Source: a virus (taxonomy: Duplodnaviria > Heunggongvirae > Uroviricota > Caudoviricetes). Taken from it: a DNA stretch of 34,596 nt. Location of the stretch: the IMG/VR virus record IMGVR_UViG_2541047860_000003, positions 1 to 34,596 of that record; one strand, written 5' to 3'. Below, piece by piece: positions 1-33,559 of the stretch. The notes beneath the pieces are model-generated. The model searched no databases, had not been told where the DNA came from, and was given only the letters and a program-made list of their open reading frames with translations. Position 1 is the stretch's first letter, and each line of letters begins with the position of its first letter. Made by a program: the position numbers and the translations under genes.

Positions 1-1254
1 ATGCTGGAACAAATGGGCATTGCCGCGAAGCAAGCCTCGTATAAATTAGCGCAACTCTCCAGCCGCGAAAAAAATCGCGTGCTGGAAAAAATCGCCGATG
101 AACTGGAAGCACAAAGCGAAATCATCCTCAACGCTAACGCCCAGGATGTTGCTGACGCGCGAGCCAATGGCCTTAGCGAAGCGATGCTTGACCGTCTGGC
201 ACTGACGCCCGCACGGCTGAAAGGCATTGCCGACGATGTACGTCAGGTGTGCAACCTCGCCGATCCGGTGGGGCAGGTAATCGATGGCGGCGTACTGGAC
301 AGCGGCCTGCGTCTTGAGCGTCGTCGCGTACCGCTGGGGGTTATTGGCGTGATTTATGAAGCGCGCCCGAACGTGACGGTTGATGTCGCTTCGCTGTGCC
401 TGAAAACCGGTAATGCGGTGATCCTGCGCGGTGGCAAAGAAACGTGTCGCACTAACGCTGCAACGGTGGCGGTGATTCAGGACGCCCTGAAATCCTGCGG
501 CTTACCGGCGGGTGCCGTGCAGGCGATTGATAATCCTGACCGTGCGCTGGTCAGTGAAATGCTGCGTATGGATAAATACATCGACATGCTGATCCCGCGT
601 GGTGGCGCTGGTTTGCATAAACTGTGCCGTGAACAGTCGACAATCCCGGTGATCACAGGTGGTATAGGCGTATGCCATATTTACGTTGATGAAAGTGTAG
701 AGATCGCTGAAGCATTAAAAGTGATCGTCAACGCGAAAACTCAGCGTCCGAGCACATGTAATACGGTTGAAACGTTGCTGGTGAATAAAAACATCGCCGA
801 TAGCTTCCTGCCCGCATTAAGCAAACAAATGGCGGAAAGCGGCGTGACATTACACGCAGATGCAGCTGCACTGGCGCAGTTGCAGGCAGGCCCTGCGAAG
901 GTGGTTGCTGTTAAAGCCGAAGAGTATGACGATGAGTTTCTGTCATTAGATTTGAACGTCAAAATCGTCAGCGATCTTGACGATGCCATCGCCCATATTC
1001 GTGAACACGGCACACAACACTCCGATGCGATCCTGACCCGCGATATGCGCAACGCCCAGCGTTTTGTTAACGAAGTGGATTCGTCCGCTGTTTACGTTAA
1101 CGCCTCTACGCGTTTTACCGACGGCGGCCAGTTTGGTCTGGGTGCGGAAGTGGCGGTAAGCACACAAAAACTCCACGCGCGTGGCCCAATGGGGCTGGAA
1201 GCACTGACCACTTACAAGTGGATCGGCATTGGTGATTACACCATTCGTGCGTAA
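1..1254 (+). CDS. proA: gamma-glutamyl phosphate reductase (complete, 417 aa)
   Basis: Full ORF starting at the first base; translation [30 protein letters not shown]... matches the enterobacterial ProA sequence and length as I recall it; sits directly upstream of tRNA-Thr as in E. coli. Confidence 0.95.
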
Positions 1255-1368: not shown

Positions 1369-1444
1369 GCCGATATAGCTCAGTTGGTAGAGCAGCGCAT
1401 TCGTAATGCGAAGGTCGTAGGTTCGACTCCTATTATCGGCACCA
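1369..1444 (+). tRNA. thrW: tRNA-Thr (anticodon CGU)
   Basis: 76-nt GCCGATATAGCTCAGTTGGTAGAGCAGCGCATTCGTAATGCG...GGTTCGACTCCTATTATCGGCACCA with D-loop, CGT anticodon loop, T-loop GGTTCGA and 3' CCA; a known prophage attachment locus next to proA. Confidence 0.9.
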
Positions 1445-1458
1445 TTAAAATCAATAAG

Positions 1459-2622
1459 TTACACATCATTAGTACCTTCCTTATTTTTTGACTGGGACAA
1501 ATTTGGGACCGATGGGTTCAGGATCGAGTCTATTTGCCGTGCGTGTTCGGTAAGGTGATTAGGTGCAAGGTGAGCATATCGACGAACCATTTCGATAGAC
1601 TCCCAGCCTCCCATTTCCTGTAACACTGACAACGGGACTCCGGCTTGAACCAGCCAACTTGCCCAGGTGTGTCTCAAGTCGTGAAATCTGAAATCATCAA
1701 TACCAGCCCGTCTCAGCGCCGCTTTCCAGGCTGTGTTTGCGTCATACCGCATCTTCCTTACTGTTGGCGCTTTCGTTCCGTCTGGTTTGGTACAGCTTTC
1801 CTTGTACACAAATACCCAACGGTGATGATTCCCGATTTGTTTTTTCAATACGCGACATGCAGTATCATTCAGCGCAACGCCAATTGCGCGGTTTGATTTA
1901 CTCTCTTCCGGGTTTATCCATGCCACCCGGCGCTGCATATCTATTTGTTGCCATTCAAGGTTGATGATGTTCGAGCGTCTTAAGCCTGTTGCCAGTGCAA
2001 ATTCAACAACAGACTTTAATGGCTCCGGACATTCATCAATCAGCCTTTGTGCTTCATGGGGCTCCAGCCAGCGGATCCGTTTATTCTTTGGTTGAGGCAC
2101 TTTAATAATTGGTGCCTTATCCAGCATTTTCCATTCACGCTCTGCGGCTCTTAGTAGGGCCTTTATAAATGAAAGATGCGTAGCCTTCGTTGCAACGGAC
2201 GCTGGTTTTGGCGTGTATTCTGGAACAGGTTTCCCTTTTTTTCTGCATGCTTCTGCCCTGAGTTTCCAGTTTTCCTCATGACGCCGGTTCGTCATTTTCT
2301 GCATTGCTGAATAAATTTTTGATTCAGTAATGTCTCTTAGTTGCATTCCTGCGAAATGTTGAAGCCAGAATCCGATCCGGCTTTTGTCATCGTCCAGTGA
2401 TTTTTTATGTGCTTTCTCTTCAAGCCACCTGACACACGCTTCCTCGAACGTTATATCAGGTATTTCACCAAGTTTGCTGACCCGCCATGCTTCAGCCTTT
2501 AGCTTGTCATGGAGTTCTGTCGCCTGCCTTTTGTCCTTTGTTCCAAGAGACTGTTTAAATCTTTTACCGTTCGGCAATGTGAAACTGGCGTACCATATTT
2601 CACCTCTGCGGAAGAGTGACAT
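1459..2622 (-). CDS. int: Tyrosine-type phage integrase
   Basis: 387-aa ORF 15 bp downstream of the tRNA; C-terminal catalytic region ...[42 protein letters not shown] fits the R..H-x-x-R..Y tyrosine recombinase signature. Confidence 0.85.
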
Positions 2623-2849
2623 TTTCTTTCCTCTGTTATGCCATCACCCGCGCTCACCTGGACAGTATGCAGCGGAGACTGAAGAGCCGCAATGCAGGCT
2701 TGTCGTGTTGTGAGGTAAGGAGATTTATTCTTAGTGGGATCTTTGCGTGTTGCCTGAAGACGCCCTGTGCGTATCCAGTTAATGGCAGTCGGTCTGGATA
2801 TCTTGAGAAAATGACAGGCCTCATCGAGTGTGAGGCTGTATGGCTCCAT
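2499..2849 (-). CDS. xis: Excisionase-like HTH protein (Xis/AlpA-type)
   Basis: Internal ATG at 2849 with SD AGAGGTGA; [31 protein letters not shown] resembles excisionase-family HTH; start overlaps the stop of the upstream gene (TAATG). Its 3' end overlaps the int start by about 120 nt, which is unusual. Confidence 0.55.
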
Positions 2850-3154
2850 TATTTCACCTCTTGCTGTGACATTGTTGAAAAATGGATACCAGCTCGTTGC
2901 TGCCAGACGATCCAACCGAGAGTCATATCCCATGCCATGTATTCGTTATTGCCGTTTTTTGCTCTCCGACGATCTACTAAGTCACCGAAACGCTTTTCCA
3001 TGAATAATTCATAAGCTTCGCGTTCATCTGGTTCTACTTCCAGAGATAGGAGTGCGATTTCATAAGCACGGCGCTCAATATCGTCTCGCACGTCAAGGCT
3101 GCTGATACGCTCTTTAATTTCTTTAATCAGTTCTTTGTCGGTAAAAGTGGTCAT
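2849..3154 (-). CDS. Small phage early protein (YfdT-like position)
   Basis: 101-aa ORF, acidic; last in a co-oriented, translationally coupled block (overlapping stop/start codons) upstream of xis-int; order matches yfdQ-R-S-T of E. coli CPS-53 by recollection. Confidence 0.45.
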   Translation of the reverse strand: MTTFTDKELIKEIKERISSLDVRDDIERRAYEIALLSLEVEPDEREAYELFMEKRFGDLVDRRRAKNGNNEYMAWDMTLGWIVWQQRAGIHFSTMSQQEVK

Positions 3155-3516
3155 TATGCTCCAGCCTCCGGTGCTTTTGGCATTACTGCCCAGTGAGTGA
3201 TATTGACGTTTTCAAGGTCCCCGACCTGAAATGTCCACTGCCATTCTCCGGTTTCTTTTTGTCCCCAGGTGTACCAGAGAGAACGCCAGCCAATTAGCCA
3301 GCCTTCTCCGTTAGCATCGAATAACAAAACACTTTCATTTGCTGGTGGCAGTTCAGTTGACACTGGTATTACTTTGTTTTCCTGTGCTGCACATTTAGCT
3401 TCAAGCGCATCGAATTTACGCACCAGGTATTCAGCATCTGTTTCATTTACTTTCAGATCTCGCGGTACACATCTCCCACGAAGAAACCCTTCCATTTCGA
3501 AAACATTCATGCGCAT
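3154..3516 (-). CDS. DUF551-like phage protein (YfdS-like)
   Basis: 120-aa ORF with Trp-rich C-terminal motif (GWLIGWRSLWYTWGQKETGEWQW) recalled for DUF551 phage proteins; SD GGAG 8 nt upstream of ATG. Confidence 0.5.
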   Translation of the reverse strand: MRMNVFEMEGFLRGRCVPRDLKVNETDAEYLVRKFDALEAKCAAQENKVIPVSTELPPANESVLLFDANGEGWLIGWRSLWYTWGQKETGEWQWTFQVGDLENVNITHWAVMPKAPEAGA

Positions 3517-4043
3517 TTGCGTAACTCCGATAACTCGTTAAAGCGTTCCATAAACATCCCGTAGGCATGGCCCGGTGCCAGTGGAATCACGTTGAACATC
3601 TCTGTTGCCGGGATACCTTCCAGTACAGGCCAGAAAGAGCCATCATCAAGCCCGAGATCGCGGCGTTCGGTTGCCAGCATGATGAGATCGGCATATTTCA
3701 CGGGCGTACTCATAACTGGGGGTAACCCGTATTTCTCACGGATTACGGCGTCTATTTTTTCTTCCATTTGTTTATAGTCAGGAAGAAGGCGTTTCAGTGG
3801 TGCGGGAATGTCCTGGCAATACGCTTCTGTTGCATCATGCATTAACGCTTCAAAAGCAAATTCCTGCGGCACCAGCTGGCTGCAAAGAACCGCATGTTGG
3901 GCGACGCTGTAGAAGTGCGAAAGATGACCGGCAAAGCGACAGATATTTGAAAGGGAAACCGCGATATCGTTAATATCGATGTCGTCTTTATTTATCCTGT
4001 CATAATAAAAATGCTTCCCGGAAAAAGTTTTAATAAATGACAT
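3507..4043 (-). CDS. HD-domain phosphohydrolase (YfdR-like)
   Basis: 178 aa from ATG at 4043 (SD GGAG); contains H...HD motif (HFYSVAQHAV...LMHDATEAY) typical of HD metal-dependent phosphohydrolases. Confidence 0.7.
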   Translation of the reverse strand: MSFIKTFSGKHFYYDRINKDDIDINDIAVSLSNICRFAGHLSHFYSVAQHAVLCSQLVPQEFAFEALMHDATEAYCQDIPAPLKRLLPDYKQMEEKIDAVIREKYGLPPVMSTPVKYADLIMLATERRDLGLDDGSFWPVLEGIPATEMFNVIPLAPGHAYGMFMERFNELSELRKCA

Positions 4044-4170
4044 TTTGTTCTCCACGTATATGCGCTGCACCGCGCTGAATTCTGGTAAAAAGAATCCCTC
4101 ACCATCCGGCGATTATTGAGTAAATTACGTTTCCATAAATGCCCCCGCAGGGGCATTTGCAGTAATGAAA

Positions 4171-4995
4171 TCAGGCGGTGAAAGTACCAATAAAGGTTTC
4201 TACTTTGCTGTCCTTGAATTTCTCAACAAGCAGATCACGAAATTCGTTAGCCATTTCTTCCTGCACCGCCTCCAGCTGAATAATGCGCAGAACCAGTACA
4301 GGACGATCGCCAGTGATAATACTGAGGCGTAATTTAAACGGACGTTCTTTCAGACCTTCAAACGGAACGCATTTAAATTCAAATGCCACTGGCATAATGT
4401 CTTTGGTCTTCGCTTCGACAGACTCCATCAGGGAGCGTTTGCCGCTGAAGTCATTATCTTCAAAATCAGCGGTCTGGTTTGCTTCAATCGTGATTTTACG
4501 GACAGCCGCAGCCGCTTTTGTTGCCTGAATAGCGTCACCATTAGCATCAAAGCCCACAAGATAGTCGGCCCAGTCTTCAATCCATTCTGCTAGTGACTTC
4601 TGGGAGTTACGCTCGCCGTTAACAGACAACAGAGCAGAGAACGGTGCTGTCTTTTTCAGTTTGAGTGTGGCGGTGTTATCTGCGTGACCTGGTTCATCAA
4701 TAGTACCTAGGTTAAGCACACTGACGGCACGCATATTATCAGCATCGATAAAGCAGCGGGTGCCTTCATCTGCAAGATCTTTAGAATAACGGGTAAAATC
4801 ATCGATGCTGGCAGTGGAAAGCGCACCACGGAAACGGAAGCGATTTAAATTAAATTTTTCCAGATCATGAATGCGGAAATTCTCAGGCAATGCCACAGCA
4901 TCGGCACCAATCTTACTGATAATTTCATTAACACCCTGAGCAGAAATAAGGGCATGGATTTGATTAATTGCGGTTGCGTCTAAGTTCTGAGACAT
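4171..4995 (-). CDS. YfdQ-like (DUF2303-type) prophage protein
   Basis: 274-aa ORF; size and position match YfdQ of CPS-53-type prophages by recollection; no catalytic motif recognised. Confidence 0.55.
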
Positions 4996-5060
4996 AATAA
5001 GTCCTCACTATATAAAGATATTCAGTGATGAGATAAATAATCAGTTAATTAAAAACGATA

Positions 5061-5423
5061 TTAACGACCTGCTGCGCGGAGTTTTCCGTCAGGTTCACCG
5101 GCAAGAGTCAGCAACTGTCCCTGGTCTTCCTGCAGAATAGTCAGGCGACCACCGCGATTGACATACATCGGCGTTTCGGTGGTGTCTTCTTCGGAAATTT
5201 TCCCGCGGTTAGTCGGGCGAACATATGAGAGTTTGTGTTTGATTTTCACTCGGTTCTCATCAAACGGTTCGATTTCTAGGTTGAGCGAGACCTTACCTTT
5301 GGTTTTCGTGTTCATCACACCGGAAGCGACTTCACTGAGAACTGCGCCGATTTTGGTTTCAAATACGCCGCCGTCCAGCTCCCCGATAAATGCCTGCACA
5401 TCAGTACTGCGTTCGCTAGCCAT
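5061..5423 (-). CDS. YfdP-like small prophage protein
   Basis: Start assigned to internal ATG at 5423 preceded by SD GAGGAG with 7-nt spacer; the longer 226-aa reading extends into a GC-rich hairpin region and has no RBS. Confidence 0.5.
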   Translation of the reverse strand: MASERSTDVQAFIGELDGGVFETKIGAVLSEVASGVMNTKTKGKVSLNLEIEPFDENRVKIKHKLSYVRPTNRGKISEEDTTETPMYVNRGGRLTILQEDQGQLLTLAGEPDGKLRAAGR

Positions 5424-5891
5424 TTTGCTGCTCCTCATCATATCGACCCTGCAAGGTCGGTTAGTTTCTCCACAAAACAGAGAAGAACACCTGCGGTGAC
5501 TGCCGCCCGGATGGATTGGGTTATGAGCCCGTCGTCCGGTGATGCTCTTCTCTGTTTTGTAAAAAGGACGGTACCAGCCGGAAGCAAGGGTACAAGCTGG
5601 TACCGCCAAGACTACACACAGCATAAAGTTGTGGTGCCGGGTGCCTCCCGGTGCCTGGCGAAGGTTGCACACCAGGCGGGTGGGTATCCACAGAAGGTCG
5701 ACTGTCAGCCTCAACCTTAACCCGCGTGCGCTGAGCCGCATTCACCACAACGCTAAGGATTCTCTCTGGTTGAAAATACTTAGCTGTTATGTGCCTGCTT
5801 TTAGCCACATCAGGCGAGGTGGACCTAGTTATTCCCCAACAACAAGGATTCGGTTAATCTGGTTATCCCCAACAACGCAAAAGGAAAAGAA

Positions 5892-6326
5892 ATGTCCGGT
5901 AATATCTATACGCTGTACAAATCCCACTGTGAAAATGTTGGAAAGTATCGGGGCATTGAAATCAGTGGGGTAGTGTCATCAGTCGAAATAAGCAAAGTTG
6001 AATCAAGGGCAACATTACTTACTCTTTTGGACCTTGTCTTACATGAGCACCGGAAGAAATTCGGCACTCCCTATAATCAGTTGAATGGGAAAAAGGCTCT
6101 GGTTCACCTTATTCTGATGAAGCATCACTGGATGCCAAAACAGATTAATGAGATGAAATTTGATGAACTTCTTCTTTCAATTCAGGATGAACTCACACTT
6201 GATAAAATAAGCGTAACCGCCCAGAAATTTTTAGATTATCGAGACTGGAGATCACAAATTCATCACTTTGATGATTTTGACGAAAATGAATGGGATCCTA
6301 ATTTGTCTGCACAATATCTAAAGTAA
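5892..6326 (+). CDS. Hypothetical 144-aa protein (AT-rich cargo gene in immunity region)
   Basis: ATG at 5892 with AAGGA SD; visibly AT-richer than the flanking phage genes; convergent with and overlapping the 68-aa minus-strand gene; no recognisable motif. Confidence 0.5.
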   Translation: MSGNIYTLYKSHCENVGKYRGIEISGVVSSVEISKVESRATLLTLLDLVLHEHRKKFGTPYNQLNGKKALVHLILMKHHWMPKQINEMKFDELLLSIQDELTLDKISVTAQKFLDYRDWRSQIHHFDDFDENEWDPNLSAQYLK

Positions 6327-6504
6327 CATCCTGTGATAAAACCGTGATTTCCTGATCCAGTTTTTTTAAGGAGTCTATTGTTTCCTGTCGATAAGACAGC
6401 ACTTCACGAAGCTGGTTTATAGCTGCCAGCTTCTTTGTCATCCACTCATAAATTTCCTCATCTGTGTAGCCAGGCGCGACGATTTTGGGTTCTGTTTTGT
6501 GCAT
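6298..6504 (-). CDS. Hypothetical 68-aa protein, first gene downstream of predicted PL
   Basis: ATG at 6504 preceded by GAGGAG with 7-nt spacer; predicted coiled-coil-like, not Arg-rich, so not an obvious N homolog. Confidence 0.45.
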   Translation of the reverse strand: MHKTEPKIVAPGYTDEEIYEWMTKKLAAINQLREVLSYRQETIDSLKKLDQEITVLSQDVTLDIVQTN

Positions 6505-6549
6505 TTCACATCTCCTCAAGTTATCAGTTACTTGTTGATGGGGACCAGA

Positions 6550-6561
6550 TTGTTAAAGAGC
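6550..6561 (-). promoter_or_regulatory. boxA-like element (GCTCTTTAACAA) on the leftward early transcript
   Basis: Minus-strand GCTCTTTAACAA matches 11 of 12 positions of the E. coli rrn boxA (TGCTCTTTAACAA) as recalled, 3 nt after a hairpin, between predicted PL and the first leftward gene. Confidence 0.4.
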
Positions 6562-6564
6562 TAA

Positions 6565-6586
6565 GCGTCCTGTAGGGCGCTTTTTT
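6565..6586 (+). terminator. Plus-strand hairpin plus T6 run (putative terminator for the 144-aa gene)
   Basis: GCGTCCTGTAGGGCGC followed by TTTTTT; on the opposite strand the same hairpin immediately precedes an rrn-like boxA. Confidence 0.4.
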
Positions 6587-6754
6587 GTTGCTAACGAATC
6601 ATCCTGGACTTCATATGCCCCAGGCGGCTACTTCGTGGGCGTCCTGCCTGTTCGTTTTTGACATTTACTGACTGCTTACGACACATGCACCGTGTTGCAA
6701 CCAGATTTTGTTGTAATCCTGTAGTTGGTCTGGAACAAAAGATAAAATTAAATT

Positions 6755-6796
6755 GTGAGATATGCAAGTGGTATTTGCGTGATATGCAAGTTGATA
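6755..6796 (-). promoter_or_regulatory. Putative OL/PL operator-promoter region
   Basis: Contains TTGCGTGATA, the same 10-mer present in the cI-cro intergenic region, plus direct repeat ATATGCAAGT twice; lies just beyond the cI terminator. Confidence 0.4.
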
Positions 6797-6800
6797 GGTA

Positions 6801-6823
6801 ATAAAAAGCCACCTTTCGGTGGC
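6801..6823 (-). terminator. Intrinsic terminator downstream of cI
   Basis: Minus-strand hairpin GCCACCGAAAGGTGGC followed by TTTTTAT, about 20 bp after the cI stop. Confidence 0.5.
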
Positions 6824-6842
6824 CGATGGAAGGATATTGAGG

Positions 6843-7535
6843 TTAATTATGTCTCTTAAGGGTTTGAGACTGACTGATTAAGACCTTTCCAAAGACCATG
6901 AATCGGTGTTCGTTTTCGCTAGTAATTCCCCATTCACGGTAAATCTGGTTATCAGAAATCACCAGCAGTTTGTCAGGAATCATTTGAAGTCTTTTAACGT
7001 ATATTTTGTCATCAAAACCAAAGACATATATACCATCACCATCAAACTGATTGATGCTGACATCAACGAAGATGAGATCTCCTGGCTCAATGGTTGGACA
7101 CATACTGTCCCCACGAACGTTGATAACTTTGATGTGATTGGCTGGTCGTCCGCCGAACATTGATACAGCATTATCAGTTCTGTATTCGATGGCATGAATC
7201 ACATCAATGACATCACCGCCCTGGATAAGGCCATTTCCCGCACTGGCACTGATATCCAGCATTTCAATACGGAACACATCCTTCACCTGCGCAACATCCT
7301 CATTATTACTGTTTTTATATACAGTATTACTTTTGTGGGCAGAGGTAAAGAGATCAGCAATATCAACACCTAAGCTCTTGGCAATATTACTCAGTGTTTG
7401 TTCGGTAAATTGTTTTTGCTTACCCGTTTCTAAGCGCGAGATGTTCGCCGCATCTACTCCTATTGCTTCAGCGAGATCGGCGATTTTCATGTTCTTCGCT
7501 TGGCGAAGTTGTCTGACTCGGTTTCCTATGTTCAT
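6843..7535 (-). CDS. cI: CI-type phage repressor (HTH + S24 LexA-like peptidase)
   Basis: N-terminal HTH (QAKNMKIADLAEAIGVDAANISRLETGK), Ala-Gly site (SASAGNG), S24 motifs (GDSM ... KR); divergent from cro across an operator-bearing intergenic region. Confidence 0.9.
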   Translation of the reverse strand: MNIGNRVRQLRQAKNMKIADLAEAIGVDAANISRLETGKQKQFTEQTLSNIAKSLGVDIADLFTSAHKSNTVYKNSNNEDVAQVKDVFRIEMLDISASAGNGLIQGGDVIDVIHAIEYRTDNAVSMFGGRPANHIKVINVRGDSMCPTIEPGDLIFVDVSINQFDGDGIYVFGFDDKIYVKRLQMIPDKLLVISDNQIYREWGITSENEHRFMVFGKVLISQSQTLKRHN

Positions 7536-7632
7536 GCGTTTATTACATTTCTTTATTGCGTGATAAGCAAATCAACTTGCGCAAAATAATTGCGTGAAAT
7601 AACATGCATAACGCGCAATATTTGGAGGGCGT
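7536..7632. promoter_or_regulatory. OR region with divergent PRM/PR promoters
   Basis: 97-bp cI-cro intergenic region carrying four related operator-like sites (TTGCGTGATA, TTGCGCAA, TTGCGTGAAAT, ACGCGCAAT). Confidence 0.6.
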
Positions 7633-7893
7633 ATGCAATCACCATTACGAAATGTGCGTAAGGCGCATGGTTTCACTTTGCAGCATGTTGCTGCGGGTGT
7701 TCAAGTCAATCCAGCGACGTTGAGTCGTATTGAGAGGCTGGAGCAGATTCCATCTATCGAGCTTGCAGAACGTTTAGCCAATTTTTTTAAGGGTGAAGTC
7801 AGCGAAATGCAGATTCTTTATCCGGCACGTTTTCAATCTAGCCAAAACCAGAATGGGTTTAAACCACAGGAACAGGAGGTGAACCGTGGGTAA
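7633..7893 (+). CDS. cro: Cro-like HTH regulator
   Basis: 86-aa ORF with HTH (TLQHVAAGVQVNPATLSRIE), GGAGG SD, divergent from cI. Confidence 0.75.
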   Translation: MQSPLRNVRKAHGFTLQHVAAGVQVNPATLSRIERLEQIPSIELAERLANFFKGEVSEMQILYPARFQSSQNQNGFKPQEQEVNRG

Positions 7894-8792: not shown

Positions 8793-9723
8793 ATTAACCG
8801 GCTATGTATGGGATGGTTGCGCTGCATCAGGCATGAAATTATCCAGCGTGGCAATTATGGCCCGCCTGGCTGATTTCAGTAATGACGAAGGTGTGTGCTG
8901 GCCATCAATTGAAACCATTGCCCGCCAGATTGGCGCGGGAATGAGTACCGTCAGAACGGCTATCGCACGGCTGGAAGCAGAAGGCTGGTTAACGCGTAAG
9001 GCGCGTCGCCAGGGTAACCGCAATGCGTCGAATGTTTATCAGCTTAACGTTGCGAAGCTTCAGGCAGCGGCATTTTCTCAACTGTCAGATTCTGACCCGT
9101 CAAAATCTGACGCATCAAAATCTGACCCGTCAAAATTTGATGCGTCGAAATCTGGCAAAAAAGCGGGTTTTCACCCGTCAGAATCTGGCGGGGATCCGTC
9201 AGTAAAATCAAAACATGATCCGTCAGATAAAAAACCTTCTCGTCCGGACGCTTCGCAACCGGACACGCAGACGGCTGAACAGGAGTTTTTAACTCGCCAT
9301 CCTGATGCGGTTGTATTCAGCCCTAAAAAGCGCCAGTGGGGAACGCAGGATGATTTGACCTGCGCACAGTGGCTCTGGAAAAAAATCATCGCCCTGTACG
9401 AGCAGGCCGCCGAATGTGACGGCGAGGTGGTTCGTCCCAAAGAACCGAACTGGACAGCCTGGGCAAACGAAATTCGCCTGATGTGTGTGCAGGATGGTCG
9501 TACTCATAAACAAATCTGCGAGATGTACAGCCGCGTCAGTCGCGATCCGTTCTGGTGCCGTAACGTGCTCAGCCCGTCGAAGCTGCGGGAAAAATGGGAT
9601 GAGCTTTCCCTGCGCTTATCGCCGTCCGTCAGCACGTACACCGAAAAACGCGAAGACCCGTACTTCAAAGCCAGTTACGACAACGTGGACTACAGCCAGA
9701 TCCCGGCAGGATTCAGGGGGTGA
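8782..9723 (+). CDS. Replication initiator, lambda O-like (HTH N-domain, repeat linker)
   Basis: 313-aa ORF; N-terminal winged-helix region (GMSTVRTAIARLEAEGWLTRKAR); internal tandem 15-bp repeats encoding SDPSK/SDASK as in iteron-bearing O-type genes. Confidence 0.7.
   Translation: MSTKLTGYVWDGCAASGMKLSSVAIMARLADFSNDEGVCWPSIETIARQIGAGMSTVRTAIARLEAEGWLTRKARRQGNRNASNVYQLNVAKLQAAAFSQLSDSDPSKSDASKSDPSKFDASKSGKKAGFHPSESGGDPSVKSKHDPSDKKPSRPDASQPDTQTAEQEFLTRHPDAVVFSPKKRQWGTQDDLTCAQWLWKKIIALYEQAAECDGEVVRPKEPNWTAWANEIRLMCVQDGRTHKQICEMYSRVSRDPFWCRNVLSPSKLREKWDELSLRLSPSVSTYTEKREDPYFKASYDNVDYSQIPAGFRG
9091..9150. repeat. Four tandem 15-bp iterons inside the O-like gene (putative phage ori)
   Basis: TCTGACCCGTCAAAA / TCTGACGCATCAAAA / TCTGACCCGTCAAAA / TTTGATGCGTCGAAA in tandem, followed by further CCGTCAG copies and an A-rich stretch to about 9240. 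Confidence 0.5.
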
Positions 9724-9725
9724 TC

Positions 9726-10214
9726 ATGAGTCTTTTGAATGACGTTCAGAAATTCATTGAAGCCCATCCGGGGTGTACTTCCGGAGACATTGCGGATGCT
9801 TTTGCAGGTTACTCACGACAGCGCGTTCTGCAGTCAGCAAGCAAGTTACGTCAGAGTGGGCGTGTGGCTCACCGTTGTGAAGGGGATACACGCAGACATT
9901 TCCCGCGGCTGACTGAGATACCGCAGGAGCCGGAACCGCAACCAGTTCGTGAATCCAGACCTGTGCGCAATTTCTATGTCGGCACTAACGATCCCCGGGT
10001 GATTTTGTGCCTGACCCGCCAGGCGGAAGAACTGGAGTCCAGGGGCTTATACCGTCGTGCTGCAACGGTGTGGATGGCGGCATTCCGTGAAAGCCACTCC
10101 CAGCAAGAGCGAAACAATTTTCTTGCGCGTCGTGAGCGGTGTTTACGGAAAAGCAGCAAGCGCGCTGTATCGGGTGAAGAGTGGTATCTGTCAGGGAATT
10201 ACGTGGGGGCTTAA
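9726..10214 (+). CDS. PerC-like transcriptional regulator
   Basis: C-terminal LESRGLYRRAATVWMAAFRESHSQQERNNFLARRERCLRK resembles the PerC/Pch motif as recalled; stop overlaps the next gene start (TAATG). Confidence 0.45.
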   Translation: MSLLNDVQKFIEAHPGCTSGDIADAFAGYSRQRVLQSASKLRQSGRVAHRCEGDTRRHFPRLTEIPQEPEPQPVRESRPVRNFYVGTNDPRVILCLTRQAEELESRGLYRRAATVWMAAFRESHSQQERNNFLARRERCLRKSSKRAVSGEEWYLSGNYVGA

Positions 10215-15811: not shown

Positions 15812-16105
15812 TTATTGTGAGCAATACACCCGCGCTTCCAGCGGAGTATAAATGCCTAAAGTAATAAAACCGAGCAATCCATTTACGAATGTTTGCTGGG
15901 TTTCTGTTTTAACCACATTTTCTGCGCCGCCACAAATTTTGGCTGCATCAACAGTTTTCTCCTGTCCAATTCCCGAAACGAAGAAATGATGGGTGATGGT
16001 TTCCTTTGGTGTTACTGCTGTCGGTTTGTTTCCAACAGTAAACGTCTGTTGAGCACATCCTGTAATAAGCATTGCCAGAGCGGCAGAAAACAACATTTTT
16101 TTCAT
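15812..16105 (-). CDS. bor: Bor lipoprotein (serum-resistance moron)
   Basis: 97 aa from ATG at 16105 (AGGA SD); MKKMLFSAALAMLITGCAQQTFTV...EARVYCSQ matches lambda Bor. Confidence 0.85.
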   Translation of the reverse strand: MKKMLFSAALAMLITGCAQQTFTVGNKPTAVTPKETITHHFFVSGIGQEKTVDAAKICGGAENVVKTETQQTFVNGLLGFITLGIYTPLEARVYCSQ

Positions 16106-17602: not shown

Positions 17603-19332
17603 GCCGGAAATCTTACCCCAACGTAAATGCTGCCAATCAGTATGCCCGTGATGTCGTGCGCGGAAAGATTGTGGCCTGCCAGTTTGTGATTCAGGCCTGC
17701 CAGCGCCATCTTGATGACCTAATGGAGGAAAAAAGTAAGTCGTTTCGTTACCGCTTCGACAAGGACCTGGCTGAACGGGCCGCGAAATTTATTCAGCTGT
17801 TGCCGCACACCAAGGGTGAGTGGGCATTTAAGAGGATGCCCATCACGCTGGAGCCGTGGCAGCTCTTTGTGATCTGCTGCGCGTTTGGCTGGGTCAATAA
17901 AGGCTCCCGGCTGCGCCGCTTCCGTGAGGTGTATACCGAAATCCCCCGTAAGAATGGCAAATCGGCAATCTCTGCCGGTGTCGCCCTGTATTGTTTTGCC
18001 TGTGATAACGAGTTCGGCGCGGAAGTGTATTCCGGTGCCACGACGGAGAAACAGGCATGGGAAGTCTTTCGTCCGGCAAGACTGATGTGTAAACGCACAC
18101 CCATGCTGACGGAAGCGTTCGGGATTGAGGTTAACGCCTCAAACATGAACCGTCCGGAGGATGGTGCGCGTTTTGAACCGCTGATCGGTAACCCCGGTGA
18201 TGGTTCATCACCCCACTGTGCGGTGGTGGATGAATATCACGAGCACGCCACAGATGCGCTTTACACCACGATGCTTACCGGGATGGGGGCGCGACGTCAG
18301 CCACTGATGTGGGCTATCACTACCGCCGGGTACAACATTGAGGGGCCGTGCTACGACAAACGGCGGGAAGTCATCGAGATGCTCAACGGCTCGGTGCCTA
18401 ACGATGAACTGTTCGGGATCATCTATACCGTTGATGAAGGTGACGACTGGACCGACCCGCAGGTGCTGGAAAAAGCCAATCCAAATATTGGCGTGTCGGT
18501 TTATCGCGAATTTTTGTTAAGTCAGCAGCAGCGTGCGAAAAATAACGCCCGTCTGGCAAACGTCTTTAAAACAAAACACCTCAATATCTGGGTGTCGGCG
18601 CGTTCGGCGTATTTCAACCTGGTGAGCTGGAAGAGCTGCGAGGATAAATCACTGACCCTTGAGCAGTTCGAGGGGCAGCCGTGCATTCTGGCCTTTGACC
18701 TGGCGCGTAAGCTGGATATGAACAGCATGGCGCGACTTTATACCCGCGAGATTGACGGTAAAACGCATTACTACAGTGTAGCCCCGCGTTTCTGGGTACC
18801 GTATGACACGGTGTACAGCGTCGAGAAAAATGAAGATCGACGGACAGCCGAACGCTTTCAGAAATGGGTGGAAATGGGCGTTCTGACCGTTACCGATGGT
18901 GCGGAGGTGGATTATCGCTACATCCTCGAGGAGGCCAAAGCGGCGAACAAAATCAGCCCGGTCAGTGAGTCACCTATCGACCCCTTCGGGGCGACCGGGC
19001 TGTCGCATGACCTTGCTGATGAAGACCTGAACCCCATCACCATCATTCAGAACTACACCAACATGTCCGATCCGATGAAAGAGCTGGAAGCGGCGATTGA
19101 ATCGGGGCGCTTTCATCATGACGGCAATCCCATCATGACCTGGTGTATCGGCAACGTGGTCGGCAAAACCATTCCGGGTAACGATGATGTGGTGAAGCCT
19201 GTCAAGGAGCAGGCGGAAAACAAAATCGATGGTGCAGTTGCGCTGATTATGGCGGTTGGCAGAGCCATGCTGTACGAGAAAGAAGACACGCTGTCTGACC
19301 ACATTGAGTCCTATGGGATCCGCTCGCTTTAA
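17599..19332 (+). CDS. Terminase large subunit
   Basis: 577 aa, size and architecture of Terminase_1-type TerL; Walker A-like region near the N-terminus ([13 protein letters not shown]); precedes the portal. Confidence 0.85.
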
Positions 19333-20569: not shown

Positions 20570-21908
20570 CATAAGCGCTAACTTAAGGGTTGAACCATCT
20601 GAAGAATGCGACGCCTCGGTGCCTCGTTAAGACGATGCCTCGCGTTCTTCAATTGCGTTTTGTAGGCTGTCAGGGATACTGTCCCACGAATGGCCACCTG
20701 TAAGCTCCAGATGACCATTTTTGTTATTCTCCACAACGAGTTAGTTCTTCTTTTCGGATCCGGCACTTCTGGGGGGGAAATCCAGCGATGGCTGGATTAT
20801 GTCGTCAATTAAAAATGCGGCGAGTAGATTAGCAAATATCCACGCTTTCGCGAGTTCAGGTTCCTTTGCACGCAAAGCATCCAGGTGCAGCAAACTTTTG
20901 AGCCGCTTAAAAGCCAGTTCAATTTGCCATCGCAGACGGTAACAATCAGCCACTTGCTCTGCTGAATATTCATCTTCCGGTAATGATGTTAGCAATAGCA
21001 CATGGCCCGCTGCTTCCAGCGTTTCCGCCTGAACTACTCGTCCTTTTCGACGATTCTCGCTGAGCAGTCGGGTTTTACTGATTAATGCTTTTTCGGGAGG
21101 AAGTGATACGGCAATGAGACGTGCCGGAAAGGGAGCTCCGGCTTTTTTATTACCTGAATTGCCTATCATTACAGTGGTTTCACCGTTCTTACCGCAATCC
21201 AGCCCGCGCAGAAAACCCATCATGTCAAAGCGCATTCCTTCTGCAGTTAACCAGCGCAATCCTCGCCAGTGAACCCGGACGATATAATCAGCTTCTCCAA
21301 AAGCAAGTGAGCGGATACATTCGGGACGCGAACCGAATCCCCGGTCAGCAATGCGTATCTCGTCTGCCGTTTGCGCAAATCGGTCCAGCCGTTCAGCGTC
21401 TCTGCTGTCGGTTAGCTCAAAATCAGTGAACTGACAGGTATGAGGATCATATCCCATATGTAGTCGCCATTCAGCGCTGCCGCCCCCGGGCGCACTGATT
21501 GCTGTTCCATCGACAAGACGCAATCTCTTTCCGCTTGTACAACCCGTAACTGCGGCGCGTACAGCAAGTGTTTGTGCGGCAAGTATGCCAAACCAGTCGG
21601 CGGCATTCCGCAGCCGCTTCAGGAGAGCCACGTCAGATAATGTTGCAACGTCATGGAGCTGAGCCCATGCAGTGACTTCACGTAATGACATCCCCCCGGG
21701 GCCGTAAGCCAGCCCCAGACGTAGCAGAGTTGCAGCATCACGAATTTCGCGGCGGCGGGTTAGAGCCCCGGCATTACGTGCCGAAGTATCCAGTTCTTCG
21801 GGCTTACCAATATGGGCCAGAATTGCTGACCAGTTATCGTGAGAGTAATTCATCGGCACGTTAAATCATATCAGGCGTAATACCACAACCCTTAAGTTAG
21901 CGCTTATG
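20570..21908 (-). mobile_element. IS186 (IS4 family), complete copy
   Basis: Perfect 23-bp terminal inverted repeats CATAAGCGCTAACTTAAGGGTTG / CAACCCTTAAGTTAGCGCTTATG; flanked by 10-bp direct duplication GGATATGAAG (20560..20569 and 21909..21918). Confidence 0.9.
20741..21859 (-). CDS. insL: IS186 transposase
   Basis: 372-aa ORF; translation NYSHDNWSAILAHIGKPEELDTSARNAGALTRRREIRD... matches the IS186 transposase as I recall it. Confidence 0.9.
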   Translation of the reverse strand: MPMNYSHDNWSAILAHIGKPEELDTSARNAGALTRRREIRDAATLLRLGLAYGPGGMSLREVTAWAQLHDVATLSDVALLKRLRNAADWFGILAAQTLAVRAAVTGCTSGKRLRLVDGTAISAPGGGSAEWRLHMGYDPHTCQFTDFELTDSRDAERLDRFAQTADEIRIADRGFGSRPECIRSLAFGEADYIVRVHWRGLRWLTAEGMRFDMMGFLRGLDCGKNGETTVMIGNSGNKKAGAPFPARLIAVSLPPEKALISKTRLLSENRRKGRVVQAETLEAAGHVLLLTSLPEDEYSAEQVADCYRLRWQIELAFKRLKSLLHLDALRAKEPELAKAWIFANLLAAFLIDDIIQPSLDFPPRSAGSEKKN

Positions 21909-28000: not shown

Positions 28001-28269
28001 TGAAAGAGCTTGAGTTAAAGAAACCGATTACTGCTCATGGCGAGACACTCTCCGTACTGGAGTTTGATGAGCCTACCGGGAAGGATGTCCGCGAGCTGGG
28101 GTATCCCTACCAGATGAATCAGGATGAGTCCGTCAGACTTCTGGCGCATGTGGTGTCGAAATACATTGTGCGGCTGGCGAAAGTGCCGCAAAGCTCTGTC
28201 GACCAGATGTCTCCGGCAGACCTGAATGCAGCGGCGTGGCTTGTGGCTGGTTTTTTCCTCCAGGCCTGA
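28000..28269 (+). CDS. Tail assembly chaperone (G-like)
   Basis: 89 aa after the tube; the slippery heptamer T_TTT_TTC sits in its last codons, allowing a -1 shift into the following frame. Confidence 0.55.
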   Translation: MKELELKKPITAHGETLSVLEFDEPTGKDVRELGYPYQMNQDESVRLLAHVVSKYIVRLAKVPQSSVDQMSPADLNAAAWLVAGFFLQA

Positions 28270-29783
28270 CGGCTGAATACCTCACTGATCGCTTCTTTGA
28301 CTGCGCCAGCTACTGGCGCATTAATCCCTTCGAATTGCTGAATTTGCCGTTCAGTAAAGTTGGAGCGAAAGCGCGGATTGCCAGGGTGCTCGATAAGCAT
28401 GGTCTTGTCGGTGATTATCGCGATGTGACCCGATATAGCATTGCCTCTGGTTATCCTTTCGACGGTGATGAGGTGACCGCCGAAATGGCAGAGTGTGAAA
28501 ACCTGTTTTCTGTGCCGGTTGACGTAATGATCACAAAGGTACAGGAAGATAAAGTCAGTGGCGTAGAGGTCGTAAAGGCGTGGAAATCTCTGCCTACCGC
28601 CGAAAATATCCAATGGGTATTTGAGCGCATCGGAGCCATGCCCGCTCGTAACATGATGTCGGCAAAAATTGAGCTTCTCAGCCTGGACGGCTGCAACTCT
28701 GGTGTTAGCGAGGTATCAGCGACCAGCCAGTTATTGAGCGAGTGCGCTCGCCGTGGAGTTCCCGACAAGAACTACGCAGCACACCTGGAATCAATCGCAG
28801 AACGCAATGCGTTTCACCCCATCAATGAGATTCTCAAATTCCGGCAATGGGATGGCAAAAACCGCGTTGCTGATGTGCTAGGCGCTATCAAGACTGATGA
28901 TGACCCATATTCTCATCAAATCCTGCTGAAATGGCTGGCTGGCGCGATTTGCGCCATTGATAGCGGCAGCGTGGCTATTAAGTTTTGCCCGGTCATTCAT
29001 AGCAAGGCCAACAACTGGTACAAGTCGCAGCTACCGGAGCGCCTGTTTAATCTGGTTGAAGGTGCTTTTGGTGGCGCTATCGGCATCCCGGAGCCATCGA
29101 ACAAAGACGACCTGATGAAATCAATTAGCGCCTGGTGTTATGAATTTGGCGAACTGGCTGGAATGACTAAGCGTGACGCAGAGGCTATCAAAAGCTTTAT
29201 CCCGATGAGTGAGGATATTTTCCGGTTGCCGTATGGCCGGTGTAATCTTTCCAAGCCGCGTCAGACGGTGTACATCGGCACAACTAACCGTGATGACTTC
29301 ATTCATGATGAGACAATCGCTACACGCTTCCCGGTTATTAAGCTCGCCTCACCGATTGACATCGAGCGTATCAATAAAGCACTTGGCTACGAGTTCGACG
29401 GCAACAGGGCCGTACTGACTGACCGCGAACAACTGATCCAATTCTGGCTTGAGGTTCGCCAGATGGTTGCAGACGGCCTTAATTACGTTATTGACGGTGA
29501 GTTGCTGGCTATTACCAGAGGGAAGAACAAAGAGTTCGAGTCGAGAACCAGCTATGACACCACGCTGCTTGATACGCTGGCGATGCACGATGGCCGCACA
29601 TATCAGACCACAACGCAGATATGCAATGAAATCGGCGTGCCGGTTGATAAGCGAGTACATGTGGGCAGGGCTCTCAACAAGCTTTCGGATAATGGTGTTA
29701 TTGAAAAGAAAGTGACAGGTGGAGTGGCTTACTACACCTTCCCCACGCGGGTTAACTATTTACCAACCCGAAATCCCGAATAA
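28236..29783 (+). CDS. VirE-like protein with degenerate P-loop and C-terminal winged helix; N-terminus continuous with the chaperone -1 frame (possible fusion)
   Basis: 515-aa ORF; central region ...KSFIPMSEDIFRLPYGRCNLSKPRQTVYIGTTNRDDFIHDETIATRFPVIKL resembles the VirE / primase C-terminal family, but the Walker A position reads HSKANNWYKS; C-terminal 60 aa are similar to the C-terminus of the 118-aa protein at 30441..30797. Confidence 0.45.
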   Translation: MACGWFFPPGLTAEYLTDRFFDCASYWRINPFELLNLPFSKVGAKARIARVLDKHGLVGDYRDVTRYSIASGYPFDGDEVTAEMAECENLFSVPVDVMITKVQEDKVSGVEVVKAWKSLPTAENIQWVFERIGAMPARNMMSAKIELLSLDGCNSGVSEVSATSQLLSECARRGVPDKNYAAHLESIAERNAFHPINEILKFRQWDGKNRVADVLGAIKTDDDPYSHQILLKWLAGAICAIDSGSVAIKFCPVIHSKANNWYKSQLPERLFNLVEGAFGGAIGIPEPSNKDDLMKSISAWCYEFGELAGMTKRDAEAIKSFIPMSEDIFRLPYGRCNLSKPRQTVYIGTTNRDDFIHDETIATRFPVIKLASPIDIERINKALGYEFDGNRAVLTDREQLIQFWLEVRQMVADGLNYVIDGELLAITRGKNKEFESRTSYDTTLLDTLAMHDGRTYQTTTQICNEIGVPVDKRVHVGRALNKLSDNGVIEKKVTGGVAYYTFPTRVNYLPTRNPE

Positions 29784-32708: not shown

Positions 32709-32933
32709 TTACTTATTTCCGTATTTCTCCATTAGTAACTCTCTAACCTCATCGGCAATCTTTGCTCCTCTCTCTGCTGTTTGCATCTTGATGGCACGGT
32801 GCAAAGATTCAGGGATATCAATCGTCAGGCGCTTCATTTTTTCCGTTTCTTCTGGCGCTGTTACGCGGTCACTAATCCAGGCGTCTGCTGATGCTGGCGT
32901 TGGTTTTTTGCCAATTGAAATCTTCTTGCTCAC
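32709..32933 (-). CDS. ParG-like RHH centromere-binding protein
   Basis: 74 aa; GTG start overlapping the parA stop; C-terminal KRLTIDIPESLHRAIKMQTAERGAKIADEVRELL is ribbon-helix-helix-like. Confidence 0.55.
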   Translation of the reverse strand: MSKKISIGKKPTPASADAWISDRVTAPEETEKMKRLTIDIPESLHRAIKMQTAERGAKIADEVRELLMEKYGNK

Positions 32934-33559
32934 TTCATTATCTCCAGCAGTTCATTAATCAGGTTCTCAATCTCTGCAACAGCCTGGCTGTTAGCGTCTA
33001 CCTCATGCAGAGCTTTACCACTCGCCGCAGCCTCTGCGAATATCACTCGCTGGGTTATTGCAGTTTGCAATGTTGGGATGTCATAAGCGGCTAAAGCCTC
33101 GCGAACATCACGCCCAATAGCTGTATTTGCGATTTTACGATTAATCACAAAACATGATTTGATGTTTTCTTTAAATACAGAAGCCTCAGCAATGAGTTTT
33201 ACTATCTCATCGGCGGCCCATATGTCATATGGTGATGGTTGAACCGGTATAAGCACCGCATCGGATGCCATGATTGCAGAACGTGCCAGGTCAGTGACTC
33301 GCGGGGCACTATCAATTACAACATGGTCATAGCCTTTCGCCAGTTCCTGAACCTCTTTATGAATTGTGGCGCGGGGAAGCCCAACGACAGAGAATAATGG
33401 TTCCCCATCTCTCGCCGCCTGCCAATCTAACGCGCTCCCTTGCGGGTCTGCATCGAGCAGCAGCACCCGGCAGCCTCTCCGGGCAAGGCTTGCCGCAACG
33501 TTCACAGAAAGCGTTGTTTTACCCACTCCGCCTTTTTGATTCAGTACGCCAATTATCAT
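32930..33559 (-). CDS. parA: ParA-type partition ATPase (small type Ib)
   Basis: Deviant Walker A MIIGVLNQKGGVGKTT..., LLDADPQGS, 209 aa. Confidence 0.85.
   Translation of the reverse strand: MIIGVLNQKGGVGKTTLSVNVAASLARRGCRVLLLDADPQGSALDWQAARDGEPLFSVVGLPRATIHKEVQELAKGYDHVVIDSAPRVTDLARSAIMASDAVLIPVQPSPYDIWAADEIVKLIAEASVFKENIKSCFVINRKIANTAIGRDVREALAAYDIPTLQTAITQRVIFAEAAASGKALHEVDANSQAVAEIENLINELLEIMK

Follow-up and report, generated by a model that had tools for sequence, protein, structure and literature searches.

The yfdPQRST early gene block of a defective SfIV-like prophage: gene content, leftward-arm context and relation to reported inhibition of host replication

We analysed a stretch of 34,596 nucleotides of viral DNA (Caudoviricetes; IMG/VR record IMGVR_UViG_2541047860_000003), referred to here as the window, and examined in it a block of genes that an initial annotation, made from the letters alone, had likened in size and order to the yfdPQRST cluster of the prophage CPS-53 of Escherichia coli K-12. 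Comparison of the open reading frame (ORF) map with the K-12 annotation gave five co-oriented minus-strand ORFs of 120, 274, 178, 120 and 101 aa, in the order P-Q-R-S-T as in K-12. The first gene, yfdP (5423..5061), encodes a product identical to K-12 YfdP at 118 of 120 positions (98.3%; phrog_204, 1e-49), and is followed by yfdQ (4995..4171; 272/274, 99.3%), the HD-domain gene yfdR (4043..3507; 174/178, 97.8%; phrog_318, 3e-110), yfdS (3516..3154; 115/120, 95.8%; phrog_583, 1e-82) and yfdT (3154..2849; 96/101, 95.0%; phrog_660), the last of which bears this name in the RefSeq annotation. In other strains the same DNA is annotated in RefSeq as yfdP, yfdQ, yfdR, 'phage protein' or YfdS family, and yfdT. 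The proposed order and sizes were thus borne out, and the similarity to the YfdPQRST proteins, on which the proposal depended, was found by alignment at 95.0-99.3% identity. As judged from these alignments, chance is excluded and the identification of the five genes as yfdPQRST orthologues is certain. The block had been placed at 3154-5423, an interval that holds yfdS, yfdR, yfdQ and yfdP but leaves yfdT (2849-3154) just outside.

All five ORFs are full length, in agreement with the earlier description of the block as intact, and their nucleotide differences from K-12 are largely synonymous, with ratios of nonsynonymous to synonymous substitution rates (dN/dS) of 0.07 for YfdP, 0.04 for YfdQ, 0.06 for YfdR and 0.12 for both YfdS and YfdT. 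Translational coupling of the whole block had also been proposed; it is consistent with the junctions of the distal genes, where the yfdR/yfdS overlap measures 10 nt and TAATG-type overlaps join yfdS to yfdT and yfdT to xis, but not with the proximal ones, where spacers of 65 nt (yfdP-yfdQ) and 127 nt (yfdQ-yfdR) intervene. The second spacer contains a GC-rich 9-bp hairpin, AAAUGCCCC-UGCG-GGGGCAUUU (4137..4158, minus strand), followed by a short U run only; with a fold z of -1.8, alone not significant, it may serve to attenuate transcription or to stabilise the transcript. For yfdR, an in-frame GTG upstream at 4070 would give a product of 187 aa, while K-12 and RefSeq use the ATG. A 226-aa ORF at 5061-5741 was rejected as a gene, being yfdP extended by an open upstream frame through a structured RNA region, and appears in RefSeq as a frameshifted hypothetical. 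Positions 2800-6000 of the window were matched in 3846 of 5426 complete E. coli genomes (~71%), in 1667 of them over at least 80% of the length.

The five products all fall in PHROG families, of which only that of YfdR has a name, 'deoxyribonucleoside 5' monophosphate phosphatase'. The HD-domain protein noticed in the block is YfdR, and this observation stood: the metal-ligand motif H...HD...D is kept (H50, H69-D70, D119) and residues 19-175 align with the HD protein Atu1052 (PDB 2gz4; E 3e-14), with which the ligands are in register. YfdR shares the HD fold and the metal-ligand motif with Atu1052 and with the 5'-deoxynucleotidase YfbR, but it scores below the YfbR family thresholds, with 25.0 bits against a gathering threshold (GA) of 25.9 for the Pfam YfbR-like family PF12917 and 20.5 bits against a cut-off of 122 for the NCBIfam equivalog NF003009; the HD_3 model also lies just under threshold. 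By these scores YfdR, although it has the HD fold, is not a YfbR equivalog, and its reported affinity for nucleotides is much lower than that of YfbR (PMC4776307). YfdQ is covered over its full length by DUF2303 (PF10065; profile 2-269 of 269, 309.7 bits, GA 26.6, 2e-92), and the 617 YfdQ homologues found all carry DUF2303. The sole solved relative of YfdQ is PDB 9o7m, 'YfdQ Protein' (274 aa, phmmer E 1e-44), in which a single sequence is present as 36 chains, implying a large assembly of this homologue; a literature search found no paper mentioning 9o7m. YfdS has a marginal C-terminal DUF551 match (Pfam, 22.2 bits, GA 22). No Pfam family was found for YfdP or YfdT, and no solved relatives for YfdP, YfdS or YfdT.

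Within a lambda-type layout, the block occupies the leftward early arm. Downstream of yfdT, on the same strand, are the excisionase gene xis (2499..2849; 116 aa; Pfam HTH_17, 3e-08; phrog_2907 excisionase, 1e-50) and the tyrosine integrase gene int (1459..2622; 387 aa), annotated as integrase in SfIV and in the RefSeq match and the last gene of the arm. They are followed by the integration site, a plus-strand tRNA-Thr gene (thrW, 1369..1441; Rfam tRNA, 71.8 bits; annotated tRNA-Thr in the RefSeq match), and by proA, which occupies the start of the window (1-1254). At the other end of the arm, a cI-type repressor with an XRE helix-turn-helix domain and an S24 peptidase domain is encoded at 6843..7535 (minus strand; an XRE family regulator in the annotation of the E. 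coli C10 locus). A terminator scan placed the intrinsic terminator of the repressor transcript, a 7-bp stem followed by TTTTTATT, at 6807..6824 (minus strand), directly upstream of the left operators (OL) and the leftward early promoter (PL). An operator-like sequence of 15-17 nt, with the 15-mer TTGCGTGATA(A/T)GCAA, occurs at both OL sites (6753-6769 and 6775-6791, within 6739..6791, minus strand) and once at the right operator (OR) between cI and cro (7556-7572); with at most 3 mismatches the motif has 6 matches against 1.24 expected, and it was also detected as a repeat family (D1). Within OL we infer PL from a -35 TTGCAT (6767..6762) and a -10 TATCTT (6744..6739) on the minus strand, separated by a 17-nt spacer, with a predicted transcription start near 6732. 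What stands just past the repressor gene, as with PL of lambda, is therefore a leftward promoter controlled by repressor operators, with hexamers that are predicted. SfIV has its own operators at the same place with a near-consensus promoter, TTGACA-16-CATAAT, and this layout supports the reading of the left arm as a PL operon.

Over positions 1399-6659, a region that comprises att, int, xis, yfdT-P and ~1.2 kb further to the PL leader, the window shares 99.3% identity with the functional Shigella phage SfIV; the homology starts within the 3' end of the tRNA gene (attL). SfIV shares with the window the small RNA (sRNA)-like element, the ECs1072-family gene and orf68 described below, but differs in immunity specificity: the region 6660-7857 (OL/PL, cI, OR and cro) is unrelated to that of SfIV, whose operators are of the GGTACA type versus TTGCGTGATA(A/T)GCAA here, whereas its flanks are 97-99% identical. 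The immunity specificity has thus been swapped in a clean mosaic exchange. The same block lies beside cI or in the leftward early arm of SfV (orf29-32), SfII, mEp460, ST64B and several Stx phages, the relatives named being SfII, mEp460, Stx2a_WGPS2, ST64B sb35-37 and LLS gp37-39. In mEp460, Stx2a_WGPS2 and ST64B, yfdP-Q-R stands on the cI-proximal side of the arm. The block is therefore very probably an accessory module belonging to the leftward early arm of a temperate phage of the SfIV/SfV type that is integrated at thrW.

CPS-53 (KpLE1; b2359-b2363) has the same gene order, lengths, overlaps and spacers, again followed by an excisionase gene, which in K-12 is torI; each protein here carries 2-5 amino-acid substitutions relative to it. 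The two prophages differ in attachment site, which is argW for CPS-53 and thrW here. Homology with K-12 ends 18 nt upstream of the yfdP ATG, which indicates that K-12 lost the native leader, an STnc100-like element, orf68 and PL, all of which are kept here. A homologue of the CPS-53 gene yfdN (PerC family) at 9720-10214 (plus strand) and adjacent replication-region genes were also observed in the early-right arm, so that CPS-53 looks like a rearranged remnant of the same SfV/SfIV-type phage, of which more survives here.

The distance from PL (~6740) to yfdP is ~1.3 kb, and three elements lie in between. The first ORF downstream of PL, and the only minus-strand ORF between PL and the block, is orf68 (6504..6298, minus strand; phrog_1744, 6e-35), preceded by a strong GAGGAG ribosome-binding site; its product is acidic (isoelectric point 4.8) and not N-like. 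It is followed by a plus-strand, ECs1072-family phage-associated gene (5892..6326; 144 aa; NCBIfam NF033230, 157.8 bits against a cut-off of 70; phrog_5286), which converges on the leftward early transcript and lies antisense to it. These two genes form a convergent cassette with 3' ends overlapping by 29 nt, and an inverted pair of ~20-nt motifs, AATCTGGT..CCCCA(A/T)CAACAAG, at 5856-5875 and 6532-6551, lies in both 5' leaders and flanks the cassette; the pair could serve both genes as a regulatory site or be left over from a module boundary.

The third element, at 5558..5781 on the strand of yfdP-int (minus), resembles the STnc100/PasD family of sRNAs (Rfam RF02076). The match is full length (model positions 1-206) with E 3e-08, but its score of 43.4 bits is below the GA of 47; the PasD family is related and, according to its authors, can be mistaken for STnc100 (2026 preprint, doi 10.64898/2026.05.13.724894). 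The element ends in an intrinsic terminator with a 13-bp stem (5607..5567) and a run of five U (5565..5561), ~140 nt before the yfdP ATG, with a fold of -31.1 kcal/mol and z = -3.9. The region 5800..5424 as a whole is highly structured (fold z = -6.9), and the yfdP leader contains a long hairpin (5472..5560, minus strand; inverted repeat I1) with 25-nt arms that are 84% complementary. The STnc100-like match was also found in SfIV and in the RefSeq-annotated matching locus; the regions of mEp460 and Stx2a_WGPS2 that were examined lack it, and there ea22-type genes also stand in place of yfdT. Matches to DicF (19.4 bits) and ftsZ-DE (18.1 bits) in the sRNA-like region, far under gathering, were taken as chance. 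Between PL and the block no antiterminator of the N type was found; the PL leader (6520-6660) gave no put- or nut-like structure and no Rfam match, its fold being close to that of shuffled sequences (z = -0.16); and no sigma-70 promoter for yfdP was seen in 5424-5560. The description of the block as positioned for expression from PL holds only loosely. The block does belong to the leftward early arm and has a promoter under repressor control upstream of it, but at a distance of ~1.3 kb, with a convergent gene and a terminator intervening.

The distribution of the genes was determined by tblastn against 50,697 phage records. YfdP was found in 180 records and YfdQ in 184, with near-identical taxon breakdowns, and the yfdP-yfdQ pair occurs in phages of Pseudomonas, Xanthomonas and Vibrio without an adjacent yfdR. 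Side by side, yfdP and yfdQ occur in Stutzerimonas phage PG1 (38% and 44% identity) and in Xanthomonas phage MET23-P3 (32% and 37% identity), in both cases with neighbours that are not YfdR-like. YfdR-like HD proteins were found in 324 records with a different host spectrum, which includes lytic jumbo phages of Caulobacter and Bacillus. The linkage of P and Q, the differing spectrum of YfdR and the replacement of yfdT by ea22-type genes show the block to be composite. It consists of a conserved old P-Q pair, present in phages of many Proteobacteria, to which yfdR, yfdS and yfdT were joined as separately mobile add-ons.

The activity of the K-12 genes on host replication has been described by Noguchi & Katayama (2016; PMC4776307). 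In that study a multicopy yfdP-T fragment suppressed the over-initiation mutant hda-185, and the active multicopy set, which inhibits initiation at oriC, was yfdQ and yfdR together with yfdS or yfdT, yfdP being dispensable. The inhibition of initiation by extra copies extended to wild-type, dnaAcos, seqA, DARS-deleted and diaA backgrounds, hydroxyurea resistance was raised, and extracts enriched in YfdQRST inhibited oriC replication in vitro (PMC4776307). Purified YfdR, described as an HD-fold protein with weak nucleotidase activity, binds DnaA in a manner that depends on Phe46 in domain I, and is a moderate competitor of DiaA and DnaB (PMC4776307); the model of competition between YfdR and DnaB was repeated in a 2025 eLife paper (PMC12122000). 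The same authors proposed that an ancestral phage used these genes as lambda uses P, noting homologues in phage SfV (PMC4776307). They drew functional analogies with lambda P and with SirA of Bacillus subtilis, which like YfdR bind DnaA and block initiation (PMC4776307). SirA uses the DnaA residue equivalent to Phe46, whereas lambda P binds domain III of DnaA and YfdR domain I; neither has a sequence or fold relationship with YfdR, which, moreover, needs partner proteins in vivo. The initial annotation had cited this work. The paper is real, and the annotation gave the binding of DnaA by YfdR and the inhibition of initiation correctly, while yfdP is not needed for the effect and the role of the cluster is not settled.

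From the 97.8% identity of YfdR to its K-12 counterpart we infer that this copy would also bind DnaA domain I and that the cluster would inhibit oriC initiation when overexpressed. In the mechanism that we propose, inactivation of the repressor would allow PL, which is overlapped by the two operators, to transcribe leftward across orf68, the antisense strand of the ECs1072-family gene and the STnc100-like element. Only those transcripts that read through the sRNA terminator would reach yfdP...yfdT, xis and int, and the module would be made in early lytic development. YfdR would then bind DnaA domain I at the Phe46 patch that is also used by DiaA and DnaB and, with YfdQ and either YfdS or YfdT, would lower initiation at oriC. 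Such a block on new rounds in the host could leave DnaB and other proteins of the replisome free to serve the phage replicon. We consider an early-left accessory module, with YfdR-centred inhibition of DnaA-dependent initiation upon overproduction as its documented activity, to be the best explanation of the block, and hold it with high confidence. A search for DnaA boxes (TTWTNCACA) within 2400-7700 found none.

Several points weigh against a function of this kind in the phage. Deletion of yfdQRST was without effect on replication, and the authors concede a possible overexpression artefact (PMC4776307). The replication phenotype was seen at multicopy only. YfdR differs here from the K-12 protein at 4 residues. 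Transcription from PL would have to pass a convergent gene and a strong terminator before yfdP, and no antiterminator was found. Finally, yfdP is dispensable for the DnaA phenotype yet is the tightest partner of yfdQ, so that the native role of the P-Q pair is probably another one than the effect on E. coli DnaA. The suggestion that the block is a host-takeover module therefore corresponds to a published hypothesis and not to a demonstrated phage function. The accompanying view that it does not belong to defence agrees with a search of PADLOC-DB, which gave no match at E<=0.01 for the five Yfd proteins, the orf68 product or the ECs1072-family protein; membership of a defence system was ruled out on this ground.

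Other readings of the block must be set against this evidence. YfdR could act as a deoxyribonucleoside monophosphate (dNMP) phosphatase of the phage T5 Dmp type, reshaping the nucleotide pool in early development, with DnaA binding incidental. The intact HD catalytic residues fit such a role, as do the names given to PHROG 318, 6402 and 8467 ('deoxyribonucleoside 5' monophosphate phosphatase') and by PGAP (5'-deoxynucleotidase), and YfdR-like proteins are spread over phages whose Caulobacter and Bacillus hosts have different DnaA partners. But the scores of YfdR against the nucleotidase models are under threshold (25.0 vs 25.9 and 20.5 vs 122 bits), and a phosphatase leaves the need for yfdQ and yfdS or yfdT in the replication phenotype unexplained; we regard this reading as unlikely, while giving it some weight. 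Considerably less probable is that the block is a stress-tolerance 'moron', expressed from the prophage to the benefit of the lysogen and not an early lytic function. Deletion of CPS-53, yfdQ or yfdS raises sensitivity to H2O2, acid or methyl methanesulfonate (MMS), as Wang et al. 2010 and Rooney et al. 2009 are cited in PMC4776307, and purifying selection on the genes in two defective prophages, this one and CPS-53, together with the presence of the block in ~71% of complete E. coli genomes, would suit a lysogenic benefit. The reported phenotypes are weak, however, and abundant SfV/ST64B/Stx-type prophages can account for how widespread the genes are. The genes moreover have the position and orientation of a repressed early-left operon, between cI and xis/int, and no sigma-70-like promoter was found directly upstream of yfdP.

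A third reading, to which we give very little credence, takes yfdP-yfdQ, with or without yfdR, as an unrecognised recombination or DNA-transaction module standing in for a Rec module of the exo/bet/gam type. The early-left arm holds no Rec module recognisable by Pfam or PHROG, and Chi sites (GCTGGTGG) are numerous in the window on the plus strand, at 3341, 8084, 10839, 11976, 12247, 14556, 15060, 19472, 19828 and 27119, versus 12376 only on the minus strand and ~0.5 expected per strand; this 10 vs 1 distribution matches the 'no Rec module, high Chi' pattern (PMC12315714). A yfdQ deletion was reported to be mildly sensitive to MMS and H2O2 (PMC4776307), the P-Q pair lies just upstream of recombinase, exonuclease and single-stranded DNA-binding protein genes in Xanthomonas phage MET23-P3, and the 36-chain entry of the YfdQ homologue fits a large oligomer. 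The cluster nevertheless co-occurs with complete Rec modules (PMC12315714; MET23-P3). A hidden recombination module was rejected after no Pfam or PHROG similarity to Redbeta/RecT/Erf/Sak/Rad52, Sak4/Rad51, Exo or Gam was found, and the YfdQ model gave no such fold match.

Beside the early-left module with YfdR-centred activity, the observations on the P-Q pair and on the leader can be combined into a more speculative picture, which we put forward tentatively and consider on the whole doubtful. In it, P-Q would be an ancient obligate unit of temperate phages of Gamma- and other Proteobacteria that is unrelated to DnaA, YfdQ would form a large homo-oligomer with a fold without informative relatives, the replication phenotype would belong to the add-on YfdR only, and the arm from yfdP to int might be gated by read-through of an STnc100/PasD-type terminator. 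If true, gating by an sRNA terminator would give SfV/SfIV-type phages a so far unstudied means of controlling excision.

The yfdP-T block is an already known and described phage early-gene module; as a discovery it carries little weight, since the genes have names and annotations, occur in most E. coli genomes and have already had a paper devoted to them. What is corrected here is the active set, which is QR(S/T) and not PQRST, and the scope of the phenotype, which appears on overexpression only. This copy keeps the native leader and PL context lost in K-12 and is therefore, or better still the intact SfIV, the right template for the host-takeover question. Within the block, yfdP and yfdQ are notable as a gene pair that is widespread in phages.

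SfIV is a functional phage, whereas the prophage studied here is disrupted. An insertion sequence of 1339 bp at 20570-21908 splits the portal gene; it is bounded by perfect 23-bp terminal inverted repeats (CATAAGCGCTAACTTAAGGGTTG), encodes a DDE transposase of 372 aa and, by its ends, looks IS186-like. With the portal gene interrupted the prophage cannot make particles. Homology with SfIV runs through the tail tube and assembly genes and ends at 28076, and the tape-measure, baseplate, fibre and gtr genes are missing, with foreign DNA in their place. The prophage is therefore defective and the yfd module is cryptic-prophage cargo in this strain, as in K-12, so that it cannot serve productive phage growth here. 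The segment 28076-34596 encodes a protein with a VapE-like domain (28236-29783) and a ParA ATPase (32930-33559, minus strand), and also holds small ORFs; it may be part of another mobile element. The final 259 bases of the window are 100% identical to an SfIV region adjoining a transposase gene. Beside the lysis genes, at ~15812-16105 (minus strand), lies a gene for an iss/bor-type 'increased serum survival' lipoprotein, as annotated in the near-identical E. coli C10 locus (18299-18592).

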